Below are positions 3,509 through 44,677 of a DNA stretch of 64,000 bases, piece after piece. Origin of the DNA: a virus. How positions within the stretch are numbered: position 1 is the first letter of the stretch; every line of letters begins with the position of its first letter. Below the pieces are notes generated by a model. The model did not search any database, was not told where the DNA came from, and was given only the letters and a program-made list of their open reading frames with translations. The stretch covers positions 98,231 through 162,230 of the IMG/VR virus record IMGVR_UViG_3300045988_177552. The stretch is one strand, 5' to 3'. Made by a program: the position numbers and the translations under genes.

Positions 3509-3729
3509 ACTTCTTTAAATTTGTTTTTAAAGTCCTCTCTTTCTCTGACATATATACTTCCGCCTAGTTCAGTATCCTGGTACATTACTGCCTCAAACCA
3601 TCTTCTTGTTGTTGGATCTTTAGCAGTACATAAGCCAAGAACTTTATATTTTCCATCATGACTTAATCCCGTCTTAGGATTAGGTGTTTGATCTCTGAAC
3701 TCCACTATGGTTCCCTTGTCTGTAATCAT
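3505..3729 (-). CDS. hypothetical small protein
   Basis: 74-aa ORF tightly packed between neighbours. Confidence 0.3.
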   Translation of the reverse strand: MITDKGTIVEFRDQTPNPKTGLSHDGKYKVLGLCTAKDPTTRRWFEAVMYQDTELGGSIYVREREDFKNKFKEV

Positions 3730-15452: not shown

Positions 15453-15634
15453 TGACTATGGAACAGGTTATAATATTCTACAGTACATGTCAAGCTCCTA
15501 CCGAACGTGATCTCCTACGTGAAAGACTGGGAATGGAAGAGGAAGAGTTTGTTATGTATGAAGAATTTAAAGAAGGAAAGAACAGTAATTGGCTAATGAT
15601 AAATGAGTATTGTAGGCGTCCTTCAAAAGTATAG
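15449..15634 (+). CDS. small ORF (61 aa) translationally coupled to the radical SAM gene
   Basis: ATGA overlap with the rSAM stop; 2 Cys; acidic. Confidence 0.25.
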   Translation: MMTMEQVIIFYSTCQAPTERDLLRERLGMEEEEFVMYEEFKEGKNSNWLMINEYCRRPSKV

Positions 15635-16316
15635 TGAGATAACATTAGGGGAAGAATTACGTGGGCCATTACTAGGAACACTCTACAAAGAAGCAGAGCG
15701 GTACATTAGGCATATATATCTTGACAGGTTACACAGGACTTTCTTGTTTGACTTATTTCCAAGGAGAGGCTTAATAATTCCTTTGGAGATATTTTCAAGG
15801 TGGTTAGAACGCTTTGATGTCTCCAGAGTTGAAATCATATCTTCAGGAAGTTTCTTGTCCAGAATTCTCAAAGGTCCTGGATATGAGTCATTCAGTGGTT
15901 TGTTTCATGAGATAAACAGAACATGCTATTATCAAGGGGATCACTTCATTCTTGGGTTAATTCAATCTTTCAAGGATTCAACCCTTAATATGCAAGTGTT
16001 TCCTAATAACGAGGGATATATATTGCCTTATGATAGGTATTCCAGGAACTTTGGAAGAGATTGCCCATTATGGAACCTACTACCTGACGAAATTAGGTAC
16101 GGTGGGGCTAGTAGTATTAATGTTAAGTACCTGGATAGACGAGATGACCTATGTGTTTATGTAGGAAATTATGCTGTTATCTTCAAATTCAAGGATGACA
16201 TAGTTTTAATTTATGGAATCCTCGATCTCACTACAAGTAAATGGGTTTTCAATGAGAAATATGAACAAGTAAAAACATTATATAAGTATGAAAATAAAGA
16301 GAATAACTATTTTTGA
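15603..16316 (+). CDS. hypothetical protein
   Basis: 237-aa ORF in operon. Confidence 0.4.
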   Translation: MSIVGVLQKYSEITLGEELRGPLLGTLYKEAERYIRHIYLDRLHRTFLFDLFPRRGLIIPLEIFSRWLERFDVSRVEIISSGSFLSRILKGPGYESFSGLFHEINRTCYYQGDHFILGLIQSFKDSTLNMQVFPNNEGYILPYDRYSRNFGRDCPLWNLLPDEIRYGGASSINVKYLDRRDDLCVYVGNYAVIFKFKDDIVLIYGILDLTTSKWVFNEKYEQVKTLYKYENKENNYF

Positions 16317-17142
16317 ATGGTTCGGATCAAGGGATAACTTCTACTTAGAGTTGGATCCTGATGTTACGATCTTGAAAGGGAAAAATCAAACAGGGAAGAC
16401 GCTTTTCCTTCGCGATATTGAGTCCCTAGTGCAATGTGTCAGGAAGAATAAGACAACAGGAAGGGCTGAATGGAGTGGAGATACTACAGACGTCTTTGCT
16501 AGGGTAGAATTTGATGCTCCCAATACGACTGCAATGTGGGTTTCAAGAGAACTAACTGAAGCTAAAAGTCATGATGTCTACAGTGCTAAGAACTATAATC
16601 ACAATACACAGGACCTCATCAGTATTTGGGACCCTGAAACTGTCTTAGATATACAGACCCTTAACGACTTGACTGTAGAGAGTATTGATCTGATCTACTC
16701 TAAGATGAAAGATGAAGATCAGGATAAGGTCTTAAAAGCAATGAACTACGTGATGGGAGGAGACGAGACAATAGTAACTATCTATGAGATGGTAGCTTAC
16801 AATTCCTCTGCATTCAAAGTTAGATTCGCTGGCAAGAAGACTATGGATATTAGCCAACTTTCTTTCGGAGTAAAGATGTTATTCAATATCCTGATCAATA
16901 CTCCGGTGGGCGAAGGAAAGATCTACTTTATTGATAGTCCGGAACTTGGCATTAGTGATGACTGGAGTTCTAGGGTAATAACTGGAGTGAAAATGATTAA
17001 TCCGGATTGTCAAGTCTTAGTAACAACGAATCAGATCATGGTTGGAGATGAATGGCCTAAGAAGATGAAATCTATAAGTTCTTGTCTCCGTAAGGTTATT
17101 CCGACGTCTCCCACTAAGAAAGAAGAAGGAGGTGAAGCATGA
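16288..17142 (+). CDS. ABC/AAA_21-like ATPase
   Basis: Walker A GKNQTGKT, Walker B-like IYFIDSPELG. Confidence 0.5.
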   Translation: MKIKRITIFEWFGSRDNFYLELDPDVTILKGKNQTGKTLFLRDIESLVQCVRKNKTTGRAEWSGDTTDVFARVEFDAPNTTAMWVSRELTEAKSHDVYSAKNYNHNTQDLISIWDPETVLDIQTLNDLTVESIDLIYSKMKDEDQDKVLKAMNYVMGGDETIVTIYEMVAYNSSAFKVRFAGKKTMDISQLSFGVKMLFNILINTPVGEGKIYFIDSPELGISDDWSSRVITGVKMINPDCQVLVTTNQIMVGDEWPKKMKSISSCLRKVIPTSPTKKEEGGEA

Positions 17143-17690
17143 AGAAGCTAATTTCACGTTTCATCTTAGGAATCCTTGGTTGGAAGCTGGAAGGAGAATG
17201 GCCTAAGGATGTGAGGAAAAGTATAATTTGCTTTGCTCCCCATACCTCATATTCAGATGGATTTATAGGGAAACTCTTCTTCTGGCAACTTGGAGTAAAA
17301 CATAAATGCATGATGACCAAGAAATATTTCAATTGGATAACATCACCATTCCTGAGACTCTTCGGTTTCATTCCGGTAGGTGGTGTTAAAGGTCATAATG
17401 CAGTCTTAGATGCCGTTGGATATCTTAAGGAATCGGATGAGTTGAATATCCTGATCTGTCCAGAGGCTCACTTAAGAAAAATAGAGTCATGGAACTTAGG
17501 ATTCATCAGGATAGCAGAGAAAGCGAAGGTTCCTATCGTCTTTGGATATCTGAATTATAAAGATAAGAAGGGAGGAATCTTGGGATATACGGAATCTTCA
17601 GAATGGGTTAATGTAAAATCTGAGATCTACACAACCTATGAGAAAGAGTGGGCTAAGTATCCAGAGAAGTTTTCATTCCCCATGAACTAA
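17139..17690 (+). CDS. PlsC-like lysophospholipid acyltransferase
   Basis: HX4D (APHTSYSDG) and PEG-like block (ICPEAHLRK). Confidence 0.5.
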   Translation: MKKLISRFILGILGWKLEGEWPKDVRKSIICFAPHTSYSDGFIGKLFFWQLGVKHKCMMTKKYFNWITSPFLRLFGFIPVGGVKGHNAVLDAVGYLKESDELNILICPEAHLRKIESWNLGFIRIAEKAKVPIVFGYLNYKDKKGGILGYTESSEWVNVKSEIYTTYEKEWAKYPEKFSFPMN

Positions 17691-18816: not shown

Positions 18817-19536
18817 ATGAATATGATTATAAACATTAATAATATGAAACGAGACTTTAGAAAATTTTTTAAGTCAAGACATCCATTTGAGATGACAGTA
18901 CTTGACGATTATGAGAAGAAGACTAAGACAGGTCTGATCACTCCCTACGTTACTAGGGAAAGCCAAGAAAGAATGGTTCAGGTCGATGTATTCTCGGAGT
19001 TAATGAGCAATAGGATCCTCTTCTTTGGGGATGAGGTTAATTCAGATACCTCCAATATCGCTCTTTCCCAGCTTCTGTACCTTCATGCAAATTCTCACGA
19101 ACCCATCACAGTTTACATCTCATCACCTGGAGGAGCTGTATATAATGGATTGGCACTCTACGATACGATGCAGCTTGTGGGGAAAGATTGCATAGTAAGG
19201 ACTGTCTGCTTGGGATTAGCAGCTTCAATGGGTAGTATTCTCATGGTCGGTGGAACAAGGGGTCATAGATCTGCGCTTGAACATAGCCGTATCATGATTC
19301 ACTCTGTATCAACTGGTTCAGATAGAGTTACGTATCCTGACTTGAAGATCTTAAGCGAAGAAACAGGAAAACTGAACGATGAACTGATGACAATCCTTTC
19401 AGAGAAGACAGGAAAACCGATCGAAGAAGTTATAAAAGATGCTGGAAGAGATTGCTGGCTTAAGGCGAGTGAATGTTTGCCTGGAGTTTATGGAAAGTTT
19501 GGACTTATTGATAGTATAGTTACTACTTTGCAGTAA
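18817..19536 (+). CDS. clpP: ATP-dependent Clp protease proteolytic subunit
   Basis: ClpP family hallmarks: ILFFGDEV, SSPGG, GLAASMGS (active Ser), His/Asp region. Confidence 0.85.
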   Translation: MNMIININNMKRDFRKFFKSRHPFEMTVLDDYEKKTKTGLITPYVTRESQERMVQVDVFSELMSNRILFFGDEVNSDTSNIALSQLLYLHANSHEPITVYISSPGGAVYNGLALYDTMQLVGKDCIVRTVCLGLAASMGSILMVGGTRGHRSALEHSRIMIHSVSTGSDRVTYPDLKILSEETGKLNDELMTILSEKTGKPIEEVIKDAGRDCWLKASECLPGVYGKFGLIDSIVTTLQ

Positions 19537-19650: not shown

Positions 19651-20451
19651 CTATCCTATAGAAGTCTCAATCTTAGCTCCAAAGCTCTCAACAAGTTCAC
19701 CCCAAAGTCTCTCGGTTGCTTCACACTTTGTATTGATAGCAGCCATACAGTCATCCAGGATTATTAATTTTCCCTGGAACCTAGAGTCATTCATGAGGTC
19801 AATCAGAGTATACCTTACACAATAATCCTTTGCAAATCCAGCCACAAAGATATTATCGTACTCTGCCATGTCATCGAGAGCCTCTGTAACCCAGGAAGGA
19901 GAAGTTCCGTCAGCATAGGAGAAAGCTGAATACATCTCAGCTCCATCATACTCTCCCTTGTCGATAATCTTATAATGCCGATTCATATCCCTTGTCCAGA
20001 GATTAAGAGAGAACATTAGGTTATCGGGGAATTGCTGTCCTGTTGATCCATGAAGACAATGTTCAGGCCAGATATGATGCATCTCTCCCTTAGCCTCTAT
20101 AGCATTTAAGTACTTGAGTGCCTCCTCCTTGGTTATATAGGCTGGCTCATAGACTCCTGCTTCAACCTGCTTAGCAGAGATTGTTATAGGATAATTGTCT
20201 ATAATATGCCTTGGATTTCCCTCTAACCAAGCAAAGGGAGTTCCAATGTGAGTTATGAAGTGATTATCCCTTGTCAGAGTTATATCGCTGATAACCCCAA
20301 CGTTTCTATAAATGTCAATGAATGAACAAAGTCTCTTCATTGCATCTACTGCTCCCATTACGTACAATTTTCCTGAGATGTCGACAAAATCAATCTGTGC
20401 ATCAATGACCAGGAGCAGATTTTTCTTTCCTTTCAAGTCGCTAAATTTCAT
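19651..20451 (-). CDS. pncA: nicotinamidase / isochorismatase-family hydrolase
   Basis: LLVIDAQIDF N-terminal Asp motif, conserved Lys and Cys (DYCVRYT) spacing typical of PncA. Confidence 0.55.
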   Translation of the reverse strand: MKFSDLKGKKNLLLVIDAQIDFVDISGKLYVMGAVDAMKRLCSFIDIYRNVGVISDITLTRDNHFITHIGTPFAWLEGNPRHIIDNYPITISAKQVEAGVYEPAYITKEEALKYLNAIEAKGEMHHIWPEHCLHGSTGQQFPDNLMFSLNLWTRDMNRHYKIIDKGEYDGAEMYSAFSYADGTSPSWVTEALDDMAEYDNIFVAGFAKDYCVRYTLIDLMNDSRFQGKLIILDDCMAAINTKCEATERLWGELVESFGAKIETSIG

Positions 20452-21655
20452 ATTTTTCAGATATTTTAATGTTATTCTCTAAGATTCCCGATACCTCTAA
20501 GAACTTGTCAAGCGTTAGATCACAGTAATCATCGACCCAATCAGCAATATAATAGAGGCACCTACTGTCGGCCATAATTCCGAAAAGGATAGGGTCAGCC
20601 TTCTTTCTTCTTTCCTCCTCCTTCTCGTCCTTCGTTGCCTTATAGACTTTTCCATCCGGGTCATAGTGAAGAACGACATAGTTATCAAAGACATGGAGAC
20701 TATCTGCTTCAAGCTTCTTTTCCCTAACTTCCTTGGGAATTGGTCTTGAGAAGTTCTTGATATAACATAAAGATATTCCCTTCTCTGACAGCTTAATGAA
20801 ACTGACCATCTGAGCTTCTGTGATTCTTTTCTCAAATCCCTTTGACCTGAGGATGGATTCATACTTGACTGTAAACAACCTAGCCAACCATTTATCAACT
20901 AAGGCTGTCTGTCCCATCTCCTTAGCATCTTTCAGGGCTGCCAGGTAAGATCCAATACGTCCATAATAGTCATCAACTTCTTTCTGAGTCGTAAGTTTAA
21001 CCAAGTCAAAGAATTTAATGACATCCAACTTATAGACCTTTGGCTTTTCTTCCTTAGGATCTTTATCAGGCATCTCTTCCTCCTTTTTCTTTTCAGATTC
21101 AGAAGATTTCTTGAATACCTTCCCTAGGAGGCCTTTCATCCAACCTTTCTTTTCCTCTTTCTTATTGGATTGATAAAGATTCTCTAGGGCTTTCGCTGTA
21201 CTCCCCATGGTATTCCTGAAATTATCAATAGTATCAGTGTCTACTTCCTCCTCTATCCAGATCTGATCAGGTGTTACCAGTTTATATTGAGAGGCCATGT
21301 TCTTCGCTTTCTTCTCATCTACGAGGAAATTCAACTCATCAATAGACATAGCATCGAAGGCTTCTTGAGTAATAGTCTGTTGGGTTCTCATCCTTGCTAA
21401 GGCCTTTCTCTTTTCATAGGAATTGAATACTGAAACTTCCCTATCTTTAACAGCCCTATCTGAAGAGGAATAATCTTCTGTGACAGTTACGACACCATTC
21501 TTTCCTTCCTCAACTTTTTTCAAGATCGCATTATATTTCGGAAGGGTATAGTCAATCTCTACAGTTTCAGTAAAGATTCTGAGATATGACTGTGATCTAT
21601 CTAAGATTTCTGTTGCCATAGGCCTAAGCGACATCTTCGTCCAAGTGAAGCTCAT
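20441..21655 (-). CDS. hypothetical protein embedded in the NAD salvage operon
   Basis: 404 aa with K/E-rich linker; overlaps pncB and pncA ends (operon). Confidence 0.4.
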   Translation of the reverse strand: MSFTWTKMSLRPMATEILDRSQSYLRIFTETVEIDYTLPKYNAILKKVEEGKNGVVTVTEDYSSSDRAVKDREVSVFNSYEKRKALARMRTQQTITQEAFDAMSIDELNFLVDEKKAKNMASQYKLVTPDQIWIEEEVDTDTIDNFRNTMGSTAKALENLYQSNKKEEKKGWMKGLLGKVFKKSSESEKKKEEEMPDKDPKEEKPKVYKLDVIKFFDLVKLTTQKEVDDYYGRIGSYLAALKDAKEMGQTALVDKWLARLFTVKYESILRSKGFEKRITEAQMVSFIKLSEKGISLCYIKNFSRPIPKEVREKKLEADSLHVFDNYVVLHYDPDGKVYKATKDEKEEERRKKADPILFGIMADSRCLYYIADWVDDYCDLTLDKFLEVSGILENNIKISEKYEI

Positions 21656-22811
21656 ACTTAGCTATCTCAATCTCCTTAGGATCACCGATATGCTTTCCTT
21701 CATCATCGCTAATTTTGATAGTTTTCTCCCAAGGATCTTTAGCGCTCATCCTGACACGGCTAAGTTTCATCACGATATTGGCAGGCTTATAACCCTCAAT
21801 ATCAGGATCACAAGTAAGGTTAGTTCCTATACCAGCGGATACCTGAATTCTATTTCCAAAGTAGTCTCTAATAGTCTTATACTTCGGAAAATCAAGAGCA
21901 TTGGAGAATACCAAGAGCTTTGTCTTTGGATCTATTCCGAACTCCTCCAATCTCTCGATAATCATATTACCAATCTTGAAATTATCACCAGAATCAATCC
22001 TATAGCCCTGGAGAAGAAGTGCTTGTTGTCTTGTGAGGGTCCTAAGGAAAGACTTTGTTCCAAACAAGTCTGTCAAGGCTGTTCCCAAGTCTCCCTTATA
22101 GACATCAATCCAGGCTTCCAACATGAGATAGTTCGCCCTCTTATTGCCAAACATACCAGCATGGGCCTGAATCCACTCATGAGGGAATGTGCCAATAGGA
22201 GTCATGTCATACTTCATTGCATAGTACATATTAGACGTACCAGTGCAATAGATCGGACATCTCTCTTTGAGTCTTCTCACAACCTCATCCTGTACTAATG
22301 AGCTGAAACGCCTCCTTGTTCCAAACTCACTAAACTTAAGCTGGTACTCATTAGCGAAGTCAATCTTCTTGTCCAGCTTCCTTATAATATCTTGGATGTT
22401 AGCTTTCACACCAAGTCTAGCATTTCTCAACTCACTGACCGTATAGAGAACAAGGATCTCATACCAAGTCACCTTATAGAGACGGTCTGTAACTTCAATC
22501 TTCAATTCACCCGTCTCAGTCAAAGAAACTTGTATCCTCTTCGGCTCAAATCTGAATGTCTTAAGCCACTCCCAATACGGAAGGTCAATATACTTAATTC
22601 TCTTACTAACAAACTCAAATTCTTTGTCAGTCAATTTCAACATACCAGCCTTAGCGAATTCCAAGTTGAGAGCTTCTACAAATTTTTCATCGTAAGTCTC
22701 ATGGTTACGATCGTAGAATGTAAATGTTCCTTCTGCTAATGGATATAATTTCCAATAAGCAAATGATGTACTCGCTTTGTACAAATCAGTGTCTAAAATA
22801 CTTTGTATCAT
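21624..22811 (-). CDS. pncB: nicotinate phosphoribosyltransferase
   Basis: LDTDLYK, FGTRRRFS, GTSN, HEW, LVFSNALD, GIGTNLTCD blocks align with E. coli PncB. Confidence 0.8.
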   Translation of the reverse strand: MIQSILDTDLYKASTSFAYWKLYPLAEGTFTFYDRNHETYDEKFVEALNLEFAKAGMLKLTDKEFEFVSKRIKYIDLPYWEWLKTFRFEPKRIQVSLTETGELKIEVTDRLYKVTWYEILVLYTVSELRNARLGVKANIQDIIRKLDKKIDFANEYQLKFSEFGTRRRFSSLVQDEVVRRLKERCPIYCTGTSNMYYAMKYDMTPIGTFPHEWIQAHAGMFGNKRANYLMLEAWIDVYKGDLGTALTDLFGTKSFLRTLTRQQALLLQGYRIDSGDNFKIGNMIIERLEEFGIDPKTKLLVFSNALDFPKYKTIRDYFGNRIQVSAGIGTNLTCDPDIEGYKPANIVMKLSRVRMSAKDPWEKTIKISDDEGKHIGDPKEIEIAKYELHLDEDVA

Positions 22812-29719: not shown

Positions 29720-31024
29720 TTAGAAAGGCAGACCATTACTACCTGCTCCGAAATTGCTACCTGCAAACTGAGGTCTCTCGAAAGGAGCTGCTTGACCAGG
29801 ATTTGCAGAACCAGGAACTATTGGAGCTCCTGTAATTGCATCCAAGTGTGCAGCAGGTGCCTGACGGAAAGGATCATTATTCTTTGATGTAATATCCTGA
29901 CCATTACCACCTACAAAATTACTGTTTCCATAACCTCCTACTGGCTGAGCTGCCTGTTGTGCGGCTTGCTGTGCCATCTGAGCAAGAACGGGATCATTTG
30001 TAGCCTGGCCCCTAGTATCTGTAGGAGTCTGATTTGCCAAGAGCGTCTTATTAGTTGCTTCAATGGCCTCCTCAATACTAGTACCGTTAGCCTTTGCCAT
30101 TCTAGTTTTTGCGAGAATATCAGTCATAAACTCAATCGTCTCTGTGATGAGTGCCTTATTGAAAAGTCTACGCTGATCTGCAGGAACGGAATCATCTTCA
30201 CGACCTGCCTGCCAACCCAAGAACATTTGCACTGGATTCTGCATTAACTCAAGATCCTCCTCAGGAATTGTTACTCCATTGAGGTAATTCTCCGCATTGA
30301 GAGAATGACTAACCGAAATATTGAAACCCGGTGAATCAGATTTTGAGATATTGAACATTAAGAAGCCCTTACGACCGCTTGCATCACGGTTATAGACATT
30401 CTTAACCCAATCATCATCTCCAGCTGTGATACTTGTGTCAGAGATGCTTTCTCCAACAGTATCCATGAAACCCTTCGATGTTACTACCATGAGGGCACTA
30501 AAGTTCTGGCGGGCTACTTCACGTGTGTTTCCAACTGACCAATAGTTCATAACACGTGCCATAAACAGTGAATAGGTCTTACGACGAATAAGTCCACCAA
30601 TAGCAGGATTCATGACGTTATTCTTTGCGTCAAGTTCCTTATAAAGCTCCTCCCAGACTGCATAAGCCTGATCCAAGAGTGCCTCATCTGCTGCTGTCAA
30701 AGAGCTTACCTCACGACCCGTTGAAGGATCCTTGATTGTATAAGCATCTTTCGGCAGAAGCTTAATCCATGCTGAATACTCCTGAGGTGTACCATCTGAC
30801 ATCACATTCTTCCTAGGCATCTTGATCTCCCTCGTATTTTTCAACGATACATAAGGGAAGTCATTGATTACGCTAGTCAGAGGAAGCAATTGATACTTAC
30901 CAAAGTTAGCCTTAGCATTGGTGTACACTGTCTCAATAGCACGACGCTTTACGAATGAGGTCGGCTTTTTCTTAGGCGACATTGACTGAAGTCTCTCCAA
31001 GAATGTTTCTACTGAATTACTCAT
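29720..31024 (-). CDS. abundant hypothetical protein with Gly/Gln/Ala-rich disordered tail ending LPF (possible SSB-like)
   Basis: 434 aa, elevated GC and codon bias; 115-nt leader with strong promoter motif; tail resembles SSB linker and tip. Confidence 0.4.
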   Translation of the reverse strand: MSNSVETFLERLQSMSPKKKPTSFVKRRAIETVYTNAKANFGKYQLLPLTSVINDFPYVSLKNTREIKMPRKNVMSDGTPQEYSAWIKLLPKDAYTIKDPSTGREVSSLTAADEALLDQAYAVWEELYKELDAKNNVMNPAIGGLIRRKTYSLFMARVMNYWSVGNTREVARQNFSALMVVTSKGFMDTVGESISDTSITAGDDDWVKNVYNRDASGRKGFLMFNISKSDSPGFNISVSHSLNAENYLNGVTIPEEDLELMQNPVQMFLGWQAGREDDSVPADQRRLFNKALITETIEFMTDILAKTRMAKANGTSIEEAIEATNKTLLANQTPTDTRGQATNDPVLAQMAQQAAQQAAQPVGGYGNSNFVGGNGQDITSKNNDPFRQAPAAHLDAITGAPIVPGSANPGQAAPFERPQFAGSNFGAGSNGLPF

Positions 31025-31127
31025 AAATTAATAAATAATTGTTTGTTGTTAAACATAAATTTTTGTTAAATTCTCATTGAGGGCTACATATCATTAACAC
31101 AAAAATCAGATCATGCCCTCTTCTCTA

Positions 31128-31172
31128 CATTATTAAGATTTTGCCGGCTTCTGGAGTGCGTTTTCTCCATGG
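31128..31172 (-). promoter_or_regulatory. two-part promoter-like motif (full form) about 115 nt upstream of abundant gene 29720..31024
   Basis: cattattaagattttgccggcttctggagtgcgttttctcc; same composite at 48957..48997. Confidence 0.45.
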
Positions 31173-31238
31173 ACCCTTTAAAATCTTATATATGTGAAAT
31201 GAAAAACTTTATTATTAACTTTTTAAAATTAAATTATT

Positions 31239-32771
31239 ATGATTACTTACATTATTTGTGGTGTAGTAGCAGTGCTATTAGTAGTGTTAATCTCAAGTAG
31301 TTATGTCAAAGCTCCTCCCTCATTTGCCTTTGTAATCTCTGGTCTCAATAAAGAGCCTAGGGTACTCATTGGCAAGGGCGGATTCCGAGTTCCTGGATTG
31401 GAGCGCCTGGACAAAGTGTATCTTGGCCAAATCACAGTTGACGTTGATACCGAAGGAAGTGTTCCTACAAACGATTTCCTCGATGTCATTGTATCATCTG
31501 TCGCTAAGATACGTGTAGTCCAGACTCCGGAAGGTATTAGGTTGGCTGCTAAGAACTTCCTCAACATGACATCTGAAAAGATCTCTGAGCAAGTTAGAGC
31601 AACTCTCCAAGGTAACCTCCGTGAAATCATTGGAACTATGGACCTCAAATCTCTTAACATCAACAGAGAGGGATTCAGTCAGGCAGTTACGAAGAGTGCA
31701 ACACCAGACATGGACAAACTTGGTATTGAGATTCTTAGCTTCAATATCCAGAACATCAGTGATAAGGACGGCTTGATTCGTGATCTCGGTGCTGACAATA
31801 CTGCTAGCATCAGGAAGGCAGCCGCTATCAATAAGGCTAATGCTACACGTGATATCAAGATTCAAGAGGCAATCGCTGAACGTGAAGCAAACGAGGCCCG
31901 TGTTGAAGCTGATACTGCCATCGCTGAGAAGAATAATGAGCTTGAGCTGAAAAAAGCGGCCTTGAAGAAACAGTCTGATGCAGCAAAGGCAGAGGCTGAT
32001 GCAGCTTATGAGATTCAGAAGCAGATCCAGCAGAAGACTATCAACATCTCAAAATCAGAAGCTGAGATTGAATTGAAGAAGCAGCAACAGATCATCTCTA
32101 ATGAATCAATCAAGATTAAGGAGAATGAACTTACTGCAACAGTCAACAAACAGGCTGAAGCAGACAAGTACAAGACTCAGGTTAATGCAGAGGCTGAGCT
32201 GGAACAAAGAAAGAGAAAGGCTGAAGCTGAGCGTTATGAAAAGGAACAACAGGCTGCTGCTAGGAATGCAGAGGCTGACGCTATAAGGTACGCTCAGGAA
32301 CAGAAAGCTCTTGGTATTAAGGCAGAAGGTGAAGCTGAAGCCGCTGCCATAGAAGCTAAGGGTAAGGCAGAAGCAGCAGCAATTGAAGCTAAGGCAAAAG
32401 CTGAGGCCGCTGGTATGAAAGAAAAAGCAGAAGCATTCAAGCAGTACAATGATGCTGCTGTAACTCAAATGCTTATCGATAAACTTCCTGAGGTTGCCAA
32501 TTCTGTCTCAAGTGCTATCGCTGGCATCAAGGGTATCAATATCTACAGTGCCGGAGGTGGCGATGGCGAAGGAGCTATCGGTTCAGTATCAGGCAATGTT
32601 CCTGTAGTGATCAAGCAGGTTTTTGACACTATGGAGAGCGTTACTGGAGTTCCTATGGCTGAACTCGTCAAGGCTCATACAATCGAGGCTAAGACAACCA
32701 GGAAGATTCAGGTTGATGATGCCCTGGCTGAAGTAGCTGATGAAATACTTGAAAGCGCTAAGAAAAAGTAG
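31239..32771 (+). CDS. SPFH/band-7 flotillin-like protein
   Basis: N-terminal TM helix, SPFH core, long EA-rich coiled coil (AEAAAIEAKGKAEAAA repeats); elevated GC. Confidence 0.7.
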   Translation: MITYIICGVVAVLLVVLISSSYVKAPPSFAFVISGLNKEPRVLIGKGGFRVPGLERLDKVYLGQITVDVDTEGSVPTNDFLDVIVSSVAKIRVVQTPEGIRLAAKNFLNMTSEKISEQVRATLQGNLREIIGTMDLKSLNINREGFSQAVTKSATPDMDKLGIEILSFNIQNISDKDGLIRDLGADNTASIRKAAAINKANATRDIKIQEAIAEREANEARVEADTAIAEKNNELELKKAALKKQSDAAKAEADAAYEIQKQIQQKTINISKSEAEIELKKQQQIISNESIKIKENELTATVNKQAEADKYKTQVNAEAELEQRKRKAEAERYEKEQQAAARNAEADAIRYAQEQKALGIKAEGEAEAAAIEAKGKAEAAAIEAKAKAEAAGMKEKAEAFKQYNDAAVTQMLIDKLPEVANSVSSAIAGIKGINIYSAGGGDGEGAIGSVSGNVPVVIKQVFDTMESVTGVPMAELVKAHTIEAKTTRKIQVDDALAEVADEILESAKKK

Positions 32772-32889
32772 CACTATTTAACAAAGAAGGGGACCTAAGA
32801 TTCGGGTTCCTTTCTTTTTTTTTATTTTTGCGCTTAGGAAGGTCTCATTGCTTTATTATTGGAAAGTAAAACATATAAATTTTTAAACT

Positions 32890-34764
32890 ATGAATGGAAG
32901 GTACGAAGACATTAATCAAATTGATTTGGTATTAAGTATGTTTAATCAATACCTATTCCAGGATTGTAAGAATAATATTGATGACTTGATATATTCTTAT
33001 CAGACTAATATGGCAACAAACGGCAATAGACTGGTAGAGTTACTCTTGGATTCAATAAAAAATTACACCCTGGATAATATTGGTTTACCATTATTTCAAA
33101 GCATCCTGGGGAGGTGTGGAAAAACTGGGCCTGAGAGTCAACAGATCATCAATAAGATCATAGAGTATAAGATGTACACTAAGGATCAGATTGAACCAAT
33201 GAAGAAATACGTTAAGGATATGATTGCTAAGACGTATATTCTCAGAGCTAATGATCGCTATAGTGATTCCCCTAGTGATTTCATAAACTACCTTAAGGGT
33301 GTAAACTTTAAATCTTCGGCTGTTGATTACTTGACATCTACGAAATTTGGAGATATAGATGTAAATTCAATCAAGGCGGAAGAACAAAACCAAGGAATTC
33401 CATCTTCTTTTGAGTGGATTAATCAAACTTTCCGCCCTGAATGTATGTATCCAAGGATGGGATTGTTCTGTGTTTCAATGCCTCCTGGTTGTATGGCAGG
33501 AGATACTGAGGTCTTTCTTGCAGATGGGACAGTAAAAACTCTGGAGGATCTCTATAAAAGCAAAAAGACAAATATTACGATCTATGCATGTGATGGAAAT
33601 GATCCAAAGGTTTCAGTAGCAGAGAATTGTCAGATCTCTAAGTACGTGAATTCCTGGTATGTAGTTGAGATTGATGGAAAGAAGGAATATAGGGTTACTG
33701 AAAACCACCCATTCCTAATGATAAACGGAGAATGGAAGAGGGCAGATAAGCTTGTTGAAGGTGATATTCTAATGACATTTAACTATAAGTCAGTAAATGA
33801 AAAAGTGATTCACACAATCACTAAGGTATATGTTGAGACCTTAAAGGAACCACAGCCAGTATATGACTTAGTAAATGTCGATCTCTATCATAATTATGCA
33901 GTAAAGTTCGACGAAACATCTGGATTCTTTAGCCACAACACTGGTAAGACCCTTTTCTGTATGCAAGAGTGTCTTTATATGTGCTTGAAAGGAAAGAAAT
34001 GTCATTATCTCTGTATGGGTGATATGACAGAATCCGACTTTATCATTCGTATGGCAGCTCAATATTTTGGAATCCCATTCTATGAGGCTAAAAGAAACTT
34101 CGATATCGTCTATGAAGAACTAAAGAAAGTCATAGGGGACAGACTTGAGATTACTTGTATTCCTGCCAGTGTTATTACAGTGGATGAATATATTGAATTT
34201 GTTAAGAGTAAGGACTATGATGTCTGTTTCTGTGATTATGATAGTCAGTTTAAATCTAATGTCTATACAGAATCAATGTACCTAACTTACGGTGATATCT
34301 ATGCTAAATTGAGTGAGCTTACGATACAGTATAAAAAACTAGTATTCATCTTAGCTCAGCCTATGAAAGCGTCTTGGTCTCTCCCTGTTATTGAAATTGA
34401 TCAGGTAGGTGAGAGTGCTAGGAAGATTCATGCCGTAGACTGGTGTTTGACAAGGGGACGTGAGCCTGGAAACTTGAATGGCTTGGGAATTTCTAAGATA
34501 GTTAAATCTAGACGTGGAGAGGAACAAGTTATAGATTACAATATTAGGCTGAACAACGGTAGATTTAAAAGTCTTCCTAGGGCAGTCTATGAGGATATCA
34601 AGCAGATTCCAGAAAAGAAAGACTATACAGAAGCTGAGATTGACAATATGATAAATAATTACCTTCAAGCTAGAGGACAGGTTCAGCAATCTATCAATAA
34701 TAAAATGGGAAATTCAGGAATAAACAATTCAGGACCTAATAGGAGAGGCGCGGCACCATTTTAA
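32890..34764 (+). CDS. RecA-fold replicative helicase (DnaB-like), intein-containing
   Basis: Extein junction restores PPG|TGKT Walker A; downstream VCFCDYDSQ resembles DnaB Walker B/DYLQ block. Confidence 0.55.
   Translation: MNGRYEDINQIDLVLSMFNQYLFQDCKNNIDDLIYSYQTNMATNGNRLVELLLDSIKNYTLDNIGLPLFQSILGRCGKTGPESQQIINKIIEYKMYTKDQIEPMKKYVKDMIAKTYILRANDRYSDSPSDFINYLKGVNFKSSAVDYLTSTKFGDIDVNSIKAEEQNQGIPSSFEWINQTFRPECMYPRMGLFCVSMPPGCMAGDTEVFLADGTVKTLEDLYKSKKTNITIYACDGNDPKVSVAENCQISKYVNSWYVVEIDGKKEYRVTENHPFLMINGEWKRADKLVEGDILMTFNYKSVNEKVIHTITKVYVETLKEPQPVYDLVNVDLYHNYAVKFDETSGFFSHNTGKTLFCMQECLYMCLKGKKCHYLCMGDMTESDFIIRMAAQYFGIPFYEAKRNFDIVYEELKKVIGDRLEITCIPASVITVDEYIEFVKSKDYDVCFCDYDSQFKSNVYTESMYLTYGDIYAKLSELTIQYKKLVFILAQPMKASWSLPVIEIDQVGESARKIHAVDWCLTRGREPGNLNGLGISKIVKSRRGEEQVIDYNIRLNNGRFKSLPRAVYEDIKQIPEKKDYTEAEIDNMINNYLQARGQVQQSINNKMGNSGINNSGPNRRGAAPF
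33490..33939 (+). other. mini-intein (150 aa, no endonuclease domain) inserted in helicase P-loop
   Basis: Block A CMAGDTEV, block B TENHPF, blocks F/G VYDLVNVDLYHNYAV...SGFFSHN followed by extein T. Confidence 0.7.
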
Positions 34765-34767
34765 ATT

Positions 34768-36153
34768 ATGGAAGAATTAATAAACAGCCCAGAGATGATG
34801 CTTAGACTAGATCTTGAAAAAGAAACCTACTCTAAGTATTATCACGACTTGGTAGACTACTGTAAAAACAAGTACCCAGGAAGAGATAAGTCTATTTATG
34901 TAGACTATCTTGAAGAGCATCATATTCTACCTCGGTGTATGGGAGGAAAGGATGAAGATAGCAACTTAGTACTAATGAACTATAGATGCCACGTCTTAGC
35001 CCATTGTTTACTATTTTTAATGGATCAAGACAGTAGAAGCTTGGCGAAAGCTGCTTGGTACATGTTATATACAGCAAATAACAATAGGGGAGGAAAGGAT
35101 ATAAATAGTTTAATATTAAGTTTCGAAAAATTTAAGGAAGAGTTATTTAATACGCTAAAGAAACCAATCGTATGTCTATCTTTAGATCTTAAGGTTGTAA
35201 AAATATACAAAGGAGTTCTAGAAATAAAAGTAGATGGTTTTTCTCCAAAACTTATGAGTCGAGTCCTAAAGAATAGGGAAATGCACAAAGGGTATCTGTG
35301 GGAAAGATTAGAAGATGTTGAAGATAAATATCCAGAAGAGATAAAAGAGTACTACAGAGACTTGGAAAATGGGAATGTTCGAACCATAAATAAAGATAAA
35401 ACTTGGATAAAAGAACAGACTACGCTGTACAGATCTCGATATAGACGAGGAAATAAGGGAAAAACCGTGGTTGGGTATGATGACGAAGTGTATTGTGTAT
35501 TTAATAATATATCCGTTGCCAAGAGACTAGGATTTTCTGCTTCAATTATAAGTTTAAACATAAACAATAAAGCTACAGTCAATAATGGGGGATACTCTTG
35601 GAAACTTATTAAATCAGATGACGACTTAAAAGATATCTCAAGTAGTAGAAAGAGAGTAGAAGAAATTCACCCTAAATCAAAAAGAGTTATCTGTTTTGAT
35701 AAAGAGAATAATAGAATTATTAAAATTTACAAAACACAAAAGGATACCGCAGCGGACGGTTTTGTTTATACTACTGTTTGTTCAGCTTTGGCAAGTGATT
35801 CTAGAAAATATTGTGGATATTATTGGTATCTAGAGTACGAATGGAAGGATAAAGATCTTCTAGAGGATTATAATAGAAGAGATGTTTTACCCGAAGTTAT
35901 TGTAAATAGGCCAAACGATCCCATAAAATTAGTTCAATTAAGTGAAAACCATAAGATTGTAAATGTATTTAGTAATCTACATGATGCTAAACCATTTGAC
36001 TATCGAGCATTAAGCAAGGTCCTAAAAAAGGAAGATAGGTTCTATAAAGGATTCTTTTGGTTTACAATGGATGAACTGAAAGTTAAATTTCCAAACATTA
36101 TAAAAGAATATGAAGAAAGAATTAAGTATAGTAATAACACTAGAAAAAATTAA
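34768..36153 (+). CDS. HNH homing endonuclease with repeated putative DNA-binding modules
   Basis: HHILPRCMGG...N...HVLAH HNH core; three repeats with G[YF]xW + acidic KYPEEIKEY-like blocks. Confidence 0.65.
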   Translation: MEELINSPEMMLRLDLEKETYSKYYHDLVDYCKNKYPGRDKSIYVDYLEEHHILPRCMGGKDEDSNLVLMNYRCHVLAHCLLFLMDQDSRSLAKAAWYMLYTANNNRGGKDINSLILSFEKFKEELFNTLKKPIVCLSLDLKVVKIYKGVLEIKVDGFSPKLMSRVLKNREMHKGYLWERLEDVEDKYPEEIKEYYRDLENGNVRTINKDKTWIKEQTTLYRSRYRRGNKGKTVVGYDDEVYCVFNNISVAKRLGFSASIISLNINNKATVNNGGYSWKLIKSDDDLKDISSSRKRVEEIHPKSKRVICFDKENNRIIKIYKTQKDTAADGFVYTTVCSALASDSRKYCGYYWYLEYEWKDKDLLEDYNRRDVLPEVIVNRPNDPIKLVQLSENHKIVNVFSNLHDAKPFDYRALSKVLKKEDRFYKGFFWFTMDELKVKFPNIIKEYEERIKYSNNTRKN

Positions 36154-36940
36154 GCTAATTTCAGTCAATGCACTATATAATGCAGGACTGATGTATAGGG
36201 GTGGGAGACCGGTACCTTATATATACAAATCTCCAGATGCTAAGAAGTTTGAGGCTATAATGGATGAACAACTTCGAGCATTAAACTGGGATGATCACAT
36301 TGAATGGCTAACTAATACTAAGCAATTCACTGTAACTCAGCAGTATATATTTAAGAGCGGTATTAAGAGCAGGGACGTCTCGAATGTTGAAAAACTATGT
36401 AGTGACGGATTTGTGCGCTTCGTTCGCTCTGAATTGGGTATAACTACCTTTGATGACTCATTATTTAGTGATGTCCATCTATATAAATCTATTATACCTG
36501 GCTCAACTAGGGAATATCTTTGTTTCAAAATATCCCCTTCTGACTTCAATATGCGATTTGATCAGATGGACAAGCCTGAACAGATCCTCTTTCACTTTGA
36601 GGGGGATTCGGATTGGGAAACGAAGGAATTCAAGAAAGGACTTAAAGATCTTGGTCTGAAATATCAATTATGTAATACCGACAAGAAGATAAAAGATCAT
36701 AATACCGATGTTTATTTCTTAGATTACCGAGATGAAAACTTTACGGAGAAGCTAATAGATCTCATGGATGTCTTATATTCAAAAAAGGACTCCGGTTTCT
36801 GCTATGTCGGAATCTTGGGGGAACCGAAAGAGAGCATCATAAAGAAAATTAATGACCTTGGTGGTAGTAATATTAAGGCCATTGGGATAGAAGAGCATAA
36901 AGATATTATAAGATTGTTCAAAGATGAAGATACACGTTAA
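36110..36940 (+). CDS. hypothetical protein
   Basis: 276-aa ORF. Confidence 0.4.
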   Translation: MKKELSIVITLEKIKLISVNALYNAGLMYRGGRPVPYIYKSPDAKKFEAIMDEQLRALNWDDHIEWLTNTKQFTVTQQYIFKSGIKSRDVSNVEKLCSDGFVRFVRSELGITTFDDSLFSDVHLYKSIIPGSTREYLCFKISPSDFNMRFDQMDKPEQILFHFEGDSDWETKEFKKGLKDLGLKYQLCNTDKKIKDHNTDVYFLDYRDENFTEKLIDLMDVLYSKKDSGFCYVGILGEPKESIIKKINDLGGSNIKAIGIEEHKDIIRLFKDEDTR

Positions 36941-37319
36941 TGAATTTAGGGTTATCATAGCAGGATCTAGGGAATTTAGTGATTATGAACTCCTCAAGAA
37001 GACCTGTGATTATTACCTATCCAATAAATTCAAAGATCCAAGTTGTAAGGTAATTGTTGTTTCCGGTCATGCCTCTGGAGCTGATACCTTAGGAGAGATA
37101 TATGCCAAGGAAAGAGGCCTGGATTGTGAAATTTATCCCGCTGATTGGAATAAGTACGGCAAGAAAGCTGGATACCTAAGGAATATGTCAATGGCTGAGG
37201 TTGGAAATTCCGCTATTATCTTCTTAAGTGCTTACGGTGAAAACAAAGGAAGCAGGATGATGGAGAGAATAGCTAGAGAAAAACATCTCTTAGTTAGAGT
37301 AGTGGAGGAAGAGGCATGA
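36924..37319 (+). CDS. SLOG-superfamily (DUF2493-like) protein
   Basis: IAGSREFSDYELLKK..., SGHASGADTLG, PADWNKYGKKAGYLRN match the DUF2493/SLOG pattern. Confidence 0.55.
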   Translation: MKIHVNEFRVIIAGSREFSDYELLKKTCDYYLSNKFKDPSCKVIVVSGHASGADTLGEIYAKERGLDCEIYPADWNKYGKKAGYLRNMSMAEVGNSAIIFLSAYGENKGSRMMERIAREKHLLVRVVEEEA

Positions 37320-37540
37320 TTAGGGTAGGCTTAGGAGATAATGATAATGAACTTGAACCTCACGGAACATTAAAGAGTTTCCTAGATGGGGTTGTGAAAG
37401 AACAAGAAGATCCTGAAGCGGAGAAGCATATAAAACTAGCTGAGAGAGTTCAGAGCCTCTATGGTGGAGACTTGAATTATTGGCTTAGATTATACGATCA
37501 AGAGTTATACGATAAAATTAGAATGTATGAAAGTAAATGA
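37316..37540 (+). CDS. hypothetical small protein
   Basis: 74 aa, overlapping neighbours by 4 and 14 nt. Confidence 0.3.
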   Translation: MIRVGLGDNDNELEPHGTLKSFLDGVVKEQEDPEAEKHIKLAERVQSLYGGDLNYWLRLYDQELYDKIRMYESK

Positions 37541-37811
37541 TTTTAGGAACAGAGTAAATCAATATGTCTCTAGAGATTCTCAGCCAGGGAATCTTTGTAA
37601 GGCATATGTCCAAAACTTAGTAAGTGAATTTGGACGACTTACCCTTCCTACAGGTCCTTTCAAGTTCTCTCTTTACAATGATGAGGATGGAGAATTGGTC
37701 TGTGAGAGAGGAGGCAAGAAAGACATTGTGGATGAGGTAAATGCCAAAGCCACACTAGAAATGGTTGGAACATTTAGAGATGACTTAACAATTGGAGGAG
37801 AGGATGATTAA
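37527..37811 (+). CDS. hypothetical small protein
   Basis: 94 aa. Confidence 0.3.
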   Translation: MKVNDFRNRVNQYVSRDSQPGNLCKAYVQNLVSEFGRLTLPTGPFKFSLYNDEDGELVCERGGKKDIVDEVNAKATLEMVGTFRDDLTIGGEDD

Positions 37812-38514
37812 GGTTTGTGCACTTAGTGACCTACATGGACACATTGATGAAGTCAGGATAGAAGAGTCTGACTACCTATTGATTGGAGGAGACATAATGC
37901 CTTTGGGTATTCAGAGCACATATGTAGCTTCTATTGACTGGCTTGAGAATAAATTCGTCCCCTGGGTGAGAAAACAGCCGGTACTCAAGAAAACTATTGT
38001 CGTCGCTGGTAATCATGACTTTGTTTTTGAGAGACATGATGAAAAAGCGAGGAATGTCTTGGAGATGGCTGGTATTGCTTACTTGAACCTGGAGACATGG
38101 GAAAATAATGAAGTTAAAATCCTAGGAGTCCCCTGGTGTAAACAATATGGATCCTGGGCATTTATGAAACCCGATAGCATCTTGAAGGAACTATATTCAG
38201 ATAGAATTAAGGATGATATATTTAAGGATACAGGAAAAATAACAATTCTCTTGAGCCATGATGCACCGTATGGAACTTCTGATATCATAACTCAGGATGT
38301 ATCATGGAATACTGGAGATCACATAGGAAGTGTAGCTATGAAAGACTTGGTGGAGAGGATTCAGCCTGATTATAACTTACACGGACACCTACATACAACG
38401 AATCACGACCAGGAAGTACTGGGGAAGACGAAGGTATATTGTGTAAGTATTCTCGACGAAAGTTATGAAGTAGCATATAAACCGTTATATCTTACAATCG
38501 GGAGTGAGGAATAA
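37792..38514 (+). CDS. metallophosphoesterase
   Basis: LSDLHGH, GGDI, AGNHD motifs. Confidence 0.55.
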   Translation: MEERMIKVCALSDLHGHIDEVRIEESDYLLIGGDIMPLGIQSTYVASIDWLENKFVPWVRKQPVLKKTIVVAGNHDFVFERHDEKARNVLEMAGIAYLNLETWENNEVKILGVPWCKQYGSWAFMKPDSILKELYSDRIKDDIFKDTGKITILLSHDAPYGTSDIITQDVSWNTGDHIGSVAMKDLVERIQPDYNLHGHLHTTNHDQEVLGKTKVYCVSILDESYEVAYKPLYLTIGSEE

Positions 38515-41406: not shown

Positions 41407-42459
41407 TTAATTCGTCTCCGCTGATCCTGAAGCCTTCATAATAAGATCCTCAGTAATCAACAGGTAGGAGATACTATTATAATATTCACTACTATCGTTC
41501 GGAGTTATAATAAAGCTGAGAGGGAAATGTTTCTCAATCTCCTTGCAGAATGTCTCGTCCCCTAGGAGTTTCTTGAAAAGATATGCTCCACCTCCAAGCA
41601 TGACAAGATTATTGGCAGCATCAAGGAACTCTCCATATCTCTCTTCAATTAAGTTCAAGACATTAACGAAATATCTCTTAGTAAACTGATTAACTACCTC
41701 TGAGAGATTAACTTCACGTCCCCTACGCCTGAGAATTCCAGTATCTACAACGGTCTGAGCTTCCTTAATTGAAATTCTATACTCGAAATTCTTGTAGATA
41801 TAATCTGACATATCTCTAGCGATTACGATAATTCCTGTGTCGGGAAGTCCTATCGTAGCACCAACAGAAGACTTCCTATTAATCACAGAACAAAGATCAA
41901 CGGTGAGATAACCAATGTCTGCGATTACATAGGAGTCGAAATCATTAACCTTCGTTGCATTAGCTGCATTTTCCCTAATATTTGCTCCAAACTTCTGAAG
42001 TGTATACCTACTTGACATAGCCTGAGGAAGACATACGAAGAACTGAGAATCTGGAGAAATCATCAAGGCGTCGTATAAGGTCTGAAGGAGTAGATCTGCT
42101 TTCTTAACAAATGCAAAACTAAGTCCAATAGCTACCTTATCAAACTTTATATGTTCCAACTTCTTCAACATATAACTAACCCAAGCAGGATAAACAGCCA
42201 ACATATCCTCGAATGTCTCTAGGGGAAGGAGATAACTACGGGCCGTCCTAAGAGCAGAAGGACCGAGGAGGAACCAGTCTGCACCAAGTCTGAAAGTCTC
42301 ATCATTATCTGCTGTTGTTGGAGGTTCTGGAAGTTTGGCAGCAGCTGAAATAATCTTATCGCTAACCATCTTTCCATTCTCATCAATGTAAGTATACTTT
42401 AGTGCTGAATAACCAAGATCCAGCGCTAGAATTTTAGCTCTTTTTTCCATAACGTTCAA
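41407..42459 (-). CDS. actin-like ATPase (ParM/Alp family)
   Basis: phosphate-1 ILALDLGYSALK, phosphate-2 IADIGYLTVDL, adenosine LMLGGGAYLF. Confidence 0.6.
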   Translation of the reverse strand: MNVMEKRAKILALDLGYSALKYTYIDENGKMVSDKIISAAAKLPEPPTTADNDETFRLGADWFLLGPSALRTARSYLLPLETFEDMLAVYPAWVSYMLKKLEHIKFDKVAIGLSFAFVKKADLLLQTLYDALMISPDSQFFVCLPQAMSSRYTLQKFGANIRENAANATKVNDFDSYVIADIGYLTVDLCSVINRKSSVGATIGLPDTGIIVIARDMSDYIYKNFEYRISIKEAQTVVDTGILRRRGREVNLSEVVNQFTKRYFVNVLNLIEERYGEFLDAANNLVMLGGGAYLFKKLLGDETFCKEIEKHFPLSFIITPNDSSEYYNSISYLLITEDLIMKASGSAETN

Positions 42460-43581: not shown

Positions 43582-44024
43582 TTTGTTATTAATTTAAACC
43601 ACCATGAATTACTAGAAACAAATCTCACTCGTCCCACTAGAGATAGGCCCTTCTGAAACTCCTTCAGGTCAATAGCATATAAGTCAAAGCCATAATTCTC
43701 AGGACTTACGATAAAACCTCTATCTTCCAAGACCCTAGAATCATATATAGACTCACTTAAGGTTGTCATGAGATATTTATAATCTTCAGCCAGGAGATAT
43801 GAACAATTCTCCTTTCCTGCTAAGTCTTCCAGGCCAAGGCTATAGTAGATAGGGAGTCTAAGCCTAACCATAGTACCTTTATGTTCGAATACTAAGGGAG
43901 ACTCAATTCCATCCCTATCAAACCATACCCTAATAGGCGCTGGATTCTCTGCTTGTGCTACTGCCTTACTAAACTCCGTTAGGTTATTATAAATCTCTAG
44001 GAGGTCAGTCTGCAGAACATTCAT
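43557..44024 (-). CDS. hypothetical protein
   Basis: 155 aa. Confidence 0.35.
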   Translation of the reverse strand: MNVLQTDLLEIYNNLTEFSKAVAQAENPAPIRVWFDRDGIESPLVFEHKGTMVRLRLPIYYSLGLEDLAGKENCSYLLAEDYKYLMTTLSESIYDSRVLEDRGFIVSPENYGFDLYAIDLKEFQKGLSLVGRVRFVSSNSWWFKLITKWKFKKRL

Positions 44025-44677
44025 TATTCACCAAGAGCTAAGAATACCTTTACACCAACCTGCTCCAGGATCTCATAAATCTTAGACGCTGCACCAGGTT
44101 CAATCTTACCCAACAGTTCCTTAGCCTTCTCAAGCTGCTCAACATAGTCCTTCAGCGGGTTCTTAGTATTACCAAACTTTGTGGTATCAAACAGACCACT
44201 TTGCTCAATTGCTTGCTTGAGAACGGTAATTACATCAGCACCTTCACCAGGAACAATCTTGATAGCTGTAGGATAGTCATTCTGAACGAAATTAGTGTCA
44301 ATGATATTCCACTCAGCTACCTCTGCAGGAACACCAGTAGGATTCTCTTCATCATCAGTCACATTCTGGATCTTCACAATGTAACCACTCTTTGCCAACC
44401 AATAATTCAGACTTGCAAAATCCTTAGTTGTCATTGCAGTATCACCATTGATGAAACTAATGATGTCAGGGTTCTTTACAGCCAATTCCAGGGTAGGAAC
44501 ATTAGTACGAAGAAAACCCTTTACAAACTCCATTACTCCAACCCCCAAGGTCTCTTTGTCAAAACGGGTACGATCAACACACTTACCCATTGATACATTC
44601 ACATCACCACCGGCAATTGAATACAAACTTACTTCAATCATTTCTGTTATTAAATTTATTGTTATTACTCGGGTCAT
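44024..44677 (-). CDS. hypothetical protein
   Basis: 217 aa. Confidence 0.35.
   Translation of the reverse strand: MTRVITINLITEMIEVSLYSIAGGDVNVSMGKCVDRTRFDKETLGVGVMEFVKGFLRTNVPTLELAVKNPDIISFINGDTAMTTKDFASLNYWLAKSGYIVKIQNVTDDEENPTGVPAEVAEWNIIDTNFVQNDYPTAIKIVPGEGADVITVLKQAIEQSGLFDTTKFGNTKNPLKDYVEQLEKAKELLGKIEPGAASKIYEILEQVGVKVFLALGE

Follow-up and report, generated by a model that had tools for sequence, protein, structure and literature searches.

Why an element that looks like a phage should encode a flotillin, and what the protein would do during infection, is the question raised by one open reading frame (ORF) of the IMG/VR virus record IMGVR_UViG_3300045988_177552. The ORF lies at 31239..32771 on the plus strand of a stretch of 64,000 nucleotides (positions 98,231 to 162,230 of the record; this whole stretch is called the window, and coordinates refer to it unless another contig is named), which is part of a 212,999-bp metagenomic contig, k119_201540 of ENA ERZ27229646. 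Bacterial flotillins are poorly understood and their roles are debated. An original prediction, made from the sequence alone, regarded the ORF as a phage-encoded flotillin which, together with a PlsC-like acyltransferase elsewhere in the window, might remodel the membrane microdomains of the host, perhaps to form replication compartments, to time lysis or to exclude superinfecting phages. The ORF is a real, full-length flotillin of the long FloT/YqiK/flotillin-1/2 type.

Identity and architecture of the 510-residue protein

The coding sequence (CDS) runs from an ATG start to a stop codon and encodes 510 amino acids (aa), as first proposed. It begins with a putative hydrophobic membrane anchor (aa 1-23, MITYIICGVVAVLLVVLISSSYV; 31239..31307, plus strand), recognized by hydropathy and modelled as a helix over residues 2-22. 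The Kyte-Doolittle hydropathy of aa 1-19 averages 2.81, in agreement with the N-terminal transmembrane helix of the original prediction, and this is the sole transmembrane-like segment of the protein. With this predicted hydrophobic stretch the protein would have the N-terminal membrane attachment of a flotillin. The SPFH / Band 7 domain follows at aa 24-202 (31308..31844, plus strand). Its match to Pfam Band_7 (PF01145; E=1.8e-20) scores 74.1 bits against a cut-off of 23.6, so that the profile search did return the SPFH core that had been proposed. Then comes an Ala/Glu/Lys-rich helical region (aa 203-400; 31845..32438, plus strand), recognized by its composition of 24% Ala, 18% Glu and 14% Lys, which bears out the long Ala/Glu-rich coiled coil of the first reading and aligns with the coiled-coil part of flotillin-1. 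The C-terminal Flot domain (Pfam PF15975, aa 365-473; 32331..32657, plus strand) scores 42 bits against a cut-off of 27 and is aligned to residues 308-419 of flotillin-1. Alignment also revealed an extra 11-residue Glu/Ala (EA) repeat, IEAKAKAEAAG, at aa 382-392 (32382..32414, plus strand).

The NCBIfam FloT model (NF058507) covers aa 41-479 at 252 bits. Because this is below the equivalog cut-off of 700, the protein belongs to the FloT subfamily but is not an equivalog of Bacillus FloT. No FloA model was matched in NCBIfam (the presence of such a model there is assumed), and the 510 aa of the protein compare with ~330 aa for FloA. Of the type originally given as YqiK/FloA, the long form with YqiK can be kept and FloA is without support. 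No PHROGs family was matched by the flotillin or its two upstream neighbours.

In a search against solved structures, human flotillin-1 (9l3g_A) was aligned over aa 26-331 and 363-476 (E=1.1e-55), and human flotillin-2 was aligned with E=8e-45. An AlphaFold2 monomer model was built from a 12-sequence alignment. Its overall confidence is low (mean predicted local distance difference test score, pLDDT, 60.7), with values of 70-86 in the SPFH region. In the model an N-terminal helix is followed by an alpha/beta SPFH core, two long helices (185-296 and 305-428, which together reach slightly past the Ala/Glu/Lys-rich segment) and a small C-terminal domain. The top Foldseek matches of the model are chains of flotillin complexes. 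Its SPFH part matches the Band 7 domain of flotillin-2 (1win) and the SPFH domains of stomatin with target-normalised template modelling scores of 0.77-0.83.

Among characterized proteins, eukaryotic flotillin-1 and -2 (PDB 9l3g, 9bq2) form a dome-shaped, membrane-attached oligomer. Their SPFH domain, coiled coils and C-terminal domain align with those of the window protein at ~30% identity. The predicted transmembrane-type helix at the N-terminus of the window protein is unlike the corresponding part of the eukaryotic flotillins, which have an acylated hydrophobic N-terminal region. Bacillus subtilis FloT and Escherichia coli YqiK have the same subfamily architecture, but the window protein scores below the level of an orthologue and its gene has no adjoining gene for an NfeD-type partner.

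Origin and retention of the gene

About 6,700 flotillin homologues were found. The best of those outside the clade of phage proteins described below are 59-63% identical to the window protein and ~495 aa long, and the named ones are from Prevotella or Bacteroidales. Phylogenetic trees were calculated by neighbour-joining with 200 bootstraps. The window protein and the homologues P0002, P0003, P0004, P0006, P0007 and P0008 form a phage clade with 100% bootstrap support, which is sister to a Prevotella/Bacteroidales clade (itself 100%) with 84-88% support. Both clades nest in a further group with 100% support, which holds viral contigs, two Bacteroidota-labelled fragments of metagenome-assembled genomes and Prevotella/Bacteroidales sequences; flotillins of Lachnospiraceae and Oscillospiraceae fall outside this group. 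The members of the phage clade that were checked lie on phage-like contigs of 24-430 kb. The branches of the phage clade are longer than those of the host clade.

The chromosomal flotillins of Prevotella and Bacteroidales (P0045, P0021 and P0119, named 'flotillin family protein') resemble the phage proteins in length (~495-510 aa), domain order and overall identity (59-63%), and in both the gene stands alone without an adjacent NfeD gene. The SPFH domain is the region most identical to the host protein (73% with Prevotella P0045). The P0045 gene is regarded as chromosomal because it sits between the aspartyl-tRNA synthetase gene and mnmE on a contig of cellular type. The phage clade differs from these host proteins in one additional EA repeat, in its longer branches, in the codon use of the element and in its phage-type neighbourhood. 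The additional repeat is found in 7/7 proteins of the phage clade and is absent from the Prevotella/Bacteroidales homologues. It is a weak clade character, since the number of repeats also varies elsewhere in the family, and was rejected as a clean marker of the clade.

Two sets of related contigs show how the gene has been kept. Contig L098, with a flotillin 94% identical to that of the window, has the same gene order on both sides. Contigs L002-L005 carry a flotillin that is 68% identical and have the downstream block in common with the window, including a helicase with 81% identity; the protein cluster of this flotillin type is found on contigs of up to 430 kb. The order flotillin, helicase, 275-aa gene, YAcAr, Metallophos, Macro is common to the window, L098 and L002-L005. 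Between the window and L098 the ratio of nonsynonymous to synonymous substitution rates (dN/dS) of the flotillin gene is 0.044 at a synonymous rate (dS) of 0.73, with values of 0.02-0.17 for the neighbouring genes. An identical flotillin protein is present on a 305-kb contig. Among contigs with an identical protein the CDS differs by up to 47-58 nucleotides, a count of silent-only differences that is biased because these contigs were found by exact protein identity. Five host proteins were used to define invariant alignment columns, of which the phage clade retains 73%, and all of the fixed differences that separate the whole clade from the host proteins (13/13) are conservative. Retention and conservative substitution argue against a decaying passenger and against a radical change of function.

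The codon use of the gene is that of the element. The effective number of codons (Nc) is 48.4, compared with 48.4 +/- 4.0 for 38 window genes, and the G+C content of third codon positions (GC3) is 0.405, compared with 0.387 +/- 0.042. The total G+C content is raised (0.447) because of the Ala and Glu codons. The high-expression codon bias of the original prediction is therefore not present. Judged by these comparisons, the flotillin gene is an old, retained, host-related gene under strong purifying selection. Phylogeny and selection would both be those of a host-derived auxiliary gene, in an element whose viral nature is plausible. From identity, origin and retention together it is very likely that an ancestor of the lineage acquired its flotillin from Prevotella-like Bacteroidales, or shares it with them.

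The element, the flotillin locus and related viral contigs

The element is plausibly a very large gut or rumen phage. It is read as a phage because the replicative helicase contains an intein and lies next to an HNH endonuclease gene, because T4-like split topoisomerase II genes are found in the flank, and because a 699-aa helicase-like protein has homologues in cultured phages of ~90 kb. Further reasons are that the best match of a ClpB/C-like ATPase in the phage database is a 642-kb uncultured phage, that many ORFs match no family, and that relatives of several window genes sit on IMG/VR viral contigs of 56-327 kb. The content of NAPRTase, isochorismatase-like, NAD-ligase-like and Macro-domain genes resembles that described for gut jumbo phages (PMC11662467). 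A megablast search with the flotillin gene and a 24-kb stretch against 50,697 phage records gave no match. The best match in the phage database, MT835492.1, was rejected as a relative, as the flotillin and a metallophosphatase are all that it has in common with the window.

Virion genes were sought by comparing ~40 window ORFs with PHROGs or Pfam and by checking the Pfam labels of ~14 kb of flanking sequence. Neither the window nor this flank gave a recognizable gene for capsid, portal or terminase, so that the term 'phage-encoded' of the original prediction is plausible and, within the window, unproven. This result, together with the close cellular homologues, would also fit a flotillin that is not functionally encoded by a phage, i.e. 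a cellular or chimeric contig, or a recent passenger in decay. There is next to no probability left for this explanation. Independent assemblies from several samples gave the same neighbourhood, the dN/dS is 0.044 at a dS of 0.73, the codon use matches that of the element, and the neighbours are phage-typical (the intein-bearing DnaB-like helicase, the HNH endonuclease, the split topoisomerase II and the helicase-like protein of cultured phages). Relatives are present in IMG/VR, and the window and flanks examined gave no genes for tRNA, rRNA or ribosomal proteins.

The flotillin gene had been described as alone on the plus strand. It is instead the first gene of a plus-strand block (31239..38514) in which it is followed by genes for the intein-bearing DnaB-like helicase, the HNH endonuclease, YAcAr and the metallophosphatase. 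It is separated from a leftward 434-aa gene by an AT-rich intergenic region of 214 bp (31025..31238), the presumed promoter region. Sigma-70-like matches in this region are no commoner than in shuffled sequence. The Bacteroidetes-type promoter motif TAnnTTTG is absent upstream of the flotillin gene and shows no clear excess in intergenic DNA (5 observed, 2.9 expected). A hairpin resembling an intrinsic terminator (32783..32827, plus strand; 14-bp stem, 7-nucleotide loop, T run) begins 12 nucleotides past the stop codon, and L098, L002 and L006 have hairpins there too, with sequences unrelated to it. Because of this hairpin directly after the stop codon, the flotillin gene looks like a transcription unit of its own. 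No NfeD family was found among the Pfam matches of the called neighbours, and the Prevotella homologue P0045 is also without one. Clustering of the neighbours gave no gene adjoining flotillin that is common to the viral clades of the Bacteroidales-type group.

Several features of these neighbours were recorded. The product of the 434-aa gene (29720..31024, minus strand) is a candidate single-stranded DNA-binding protein (SSB-like), with a Gln/Ala/Gly-rich tail that ends in ...NGLPF. The DnaB-like helicase (32890..34764, plus strand) ends in ...RRGAAPF, and both ends resemble the partner-recruiting tips of SSB proteins. The intein of the helicase (Pfam Intein_splicing, aa 208-350) is absent from the orthologues of 471-473 aa in L098 and L002. 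The HNH endonuclease ORF behind the helicase gene (34768..36153, plus strand) is present in L098 and absent in L002.

Within the phage clade, the P0007 subclade occurs on contigs of ~420 kb, where the surroundings of the gene are different and include homing endonucleases and split RNA polymerase beta-like genes. When IMG/VR was scanned by alignment, 34 viral contigs (6.6-413 kb, median ~124 kb) were seen to carry flotillins. These flotillins belong to at least six separate clades, one of which holds GenBank MT835492.1. Six of the IMG/VR contigs (L010, L122, L123, L126, L127 and L130), whose flotillins are not of the Bacteroidales-type group, share two conserved ORFs of ~160-200 aa directly upstream of flotillin; these are possibly NfeD/YqiJ-like partners.

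SPFH-family genes are also present in the genomes of Vibrio phage KIT04, Xanthomonas phage X1 and Gibbsiella phage GIB1. The KIT04 'flotillin family protein' matches the window protein only at aa 100-184, with 32% identity. In the literature searched, papers on a few phages list SPFH genes and call the reason for their presence unclear (PMC13239085, PMC13384950), and one phage is reported to integrate into the floA gene of its host (PMC13245101). The literature searched contains, for the KIT04, X1 and GIB1 genes, no evidence of a conserved, host-derived, full-length flotillin of huge phages or of a tested function, and no mention of flotillin was found in the jumbo-phage literature searched. 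The recurrence of full-length flotillins on dozens of large viral contigs appears to be undescribed in the literature searched.

Possible roles in infection and other genes of the window

A membrane role in infection can reasonably be inferred, since the protein is a true flotillin, the 213-kb contig is phage-like and the gene is under purifying selection in relatives. After infection the phage flotillin would be anchored in the cytoplasmic membrane of the host by its N-terminal helix. The SPFH domain and the long helices would drive oligomerisation into membrane-attached assemblies, as in cellular flotillins. The phage copy might then replace or supplement the flotillin of the host, and so keep membrane organisation and integrity through a long infection. 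Such a maintenance role is favoured because it fits the genes for GroEL, a ClpB/C-like unfoldase, ClpP, an FtsH-like protease, an M42 aminopeptidase and NAD salvage. The best explanation as a whole (flotillin identity, Bacteroidales-related origin, retention, and replacement or supplementation of the host flotillin) is given a slightly better than even chance of being correct.

Several points weigh against this explanation. The maintenance role is argued from gene content, the monomer model is of low confidence, the count of silent differences carries the bias described above, and the window and its extra flank lack a recognized capsid, portal or terminase gene. In addition, the direction of transfer is deduced from distance trees only, with thin sampling of cellular Bacteroidota and a Prevotella clade that is flanked by viral sequences.

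Should the recurrence on large viral contigs hold, flotillin would be a further host-maintenance gene that distinguishes large phages from small ones. That a phage keeps its own copy under strong selection suggests a membrane function that is limiting for infection. The phage flotillin also offers a natural gain-of-function system for flotillin assembly in Bacteroidales.

Alternatively, the flotillin could be a scaffold for a phage-specific membrane process, such as the anchoring of replication, the concentration of assembly or lysis proteins, or the formation of a compartment from a patch of membrane, perhaps with recruitment of the soluble FtsH-like protease. In the lineage of the window the gene lies between the SSB-like gene and the DnaB-like helicase gene and heads a replication block, but the terminator-like hairpin lies between it and the helicase gene. 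The context is unrelated in the P0007 lineage, and the viral clades have no conserved neighbour in common. The window also encodes a ParM/MreB-like actin and an AAA+/M41 protein, which has an HEAGH motif but lacks a transmembrane segment; the gene for the latter, however, is 19 kb from flotillin. Judged by branch lengths, evolution has been faster in the phage clade than in the host clade, yet all of the fixed differences from the host proteins are conservative. A scaffold of this kind is possible but unlikely. More doubtful is the stronger form of this idea, in which large phages of gut anaerobes build membrane-attached cages of flotillin around a patch of host membrane for a task of their own, such as holding a protease, the replisome or lysis proteins, and thus make a second phage-made compartment besides the protein 'phage nucleus'. 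If this were true, the occurrence of flotillins in at least six viral clades would be explained by convergence. SPFH proteins often partner FtsH-type proteases.

A role against competitors was also considered, i.e. superinfection exclusion, another block at the level of the membrane, or a counter to a membrane-acting defence of the host. Membrane proteins made early in infection often mediate exclusion. The flotillin is one of only three window proteins with a transmembrane-like segment, its gene is a stand-alone unit, and several phage lineages have acquired a flotillin separately. On the other hand, PADLOC gave no match for the flotillin, and a housekeeping architecture that is conserved almost completely, with conservative substitutions, is unlike what is seen in fast-evolving exclusion or anti-defence genes. 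As no link to exclusion was found in the literature searched either, such a role is considered quite improbable.

The PlsC-like acyltransferase of the original prediction is present in the window. The 183-aa product of 17139..17690 (plus strand) matches Pfam Acyltransferase (PF01553) with 30.3 bits against a cut-off of 23, and has the HX4D motif (H34-T-S-Y-S-D39) of PlsC/LPLAT-like enzymes and a PEAH motif. Its gene is the last of a three-gene cassette with overlapping ends (15603..17690, plus strand), which encodes proteins of 237, 284 and 183 aa. The 284-aa protein (16288..17142, plus strand) is an AAA_15 / AriA-like ABC-type ATPase (PADLOC AriA, 7e-17); its Pfam AAA_15 match of 30.3 bits is just under the cut-off of 32.1. 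The 3' end of the ATPase gene overlaps the start of the acyltransferase gene by 4 bp. The same cassette is found in the distant relative L132 (6356..8549; 269, 280 and 182 aa, with an acyltransferase of 52% identity), where no flotillin was seen within the 12 kb read. The pairing of a defence-like ATPase with an acyltransferase is an unusual combination; PADLOC gave no match for the acyltransferase itself.

The joint remodelling of membrane lipid microdomains by flotillin and acyltransferase has in its favour that both genes are real and that both families act at membranes. The two genes are, however, 13.5 kb apart in different strand blocks, and the acyltransferase belongs to the conserved cassette. 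The family of the latter is tiny and lineage-specific, with only six homologues found (52-98% identical), compared with thousands for flotillin, and the viral flotillin loci of other clades are without an acyltransferase neighbour. The acyltransferase is the cassette partner of the ATPase, and nothing ties it to the flotillin. The proposed partnership is therefore abandoned as highly improbable, and replacement or supplementation of host flotillin is retained as the preferred explanation.

Other genes of the window include a protein quality-control set with an M42 aminopeptidase (2447..3508, minus strand), a ClpB/ClpC-like unfoldase (3726..6470, minus strand), ClpP (18817..19536, plus strand) and GroEL (47017..48642, minus strand). 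The unfoldase has two AAA domains and the PHROG label 'ATP-dependent protease'. The AAA+/M41 protein mentioned above (10378..12507, minus strand; 709 aa) has a Walker A motif at aa 62-69 and the FtsH-like HEAGH motif at aa 508. Its Peptidase_M41 match, at 25.8 bits, is below the cut-off of 29.9, and the protein resembles a soluble protease of the FtsH type.

The genes for NAPRTase, a protein of ~400 aa and an isochorismatase-like protein (19651..22811, minus strand) keep their order in three lineages (the window, L132 and L143), which suggests a role in the metabolism of NAD for the ~400-aa protein. The PHROG label 'transposase' of this middle protein (ORF 20441..21655) is probably wrong in view of its position, and its homologues are all on phage contigs of 100-420 kb. 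No host assignment was obtained through the homologues of this ORF; the proposed Prevotella/Bacteroidales host is taken from the flotillin tree.

The ParM/MreB-like actin-fold protein (41407..42459, minus strand; PHROG 'partition protein', Pfam ParM_N and MreB-like_C) is kept in L098. Besides the flotillin, the window ORFs with transmembrane-like segments include one for a 193-aa protein (55745..56326, minus strand) with three such segments and the Pfam label Form_Nir_trans (formate/nitrite transporter family). The strongest codon bias of the window (Nc 37.8) was observed in a 217-aa ORF (44024..44677, minus strand). A 352-aa ORF (57838..58896, plus strand) is an outlier in composition, with a G+C content of 0.482 and a GC3 of 0.524 (means 0.396 and 0.387), and matches no family.

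In the P0003-type relatives L002, L004 and L005 (5495..7321) a GIY-YIG/NUMOD3 endonuclease gene interrupts the thymidylate synthase gene, which is intact (272 aa) in L003; the difference resembles a polymorphism of a mobile intron or homing endonuclease. At the end of the window, 59792..61792 (plus strand) and the next ~4 kb (L134 8627..14705) encode two Peptidase_C26-type glutamine amidotransferases, a GATase_6/7 and an Amidoligase_2-like protein, and this cluster is followed by the T4-like split topoisomerase II genes.

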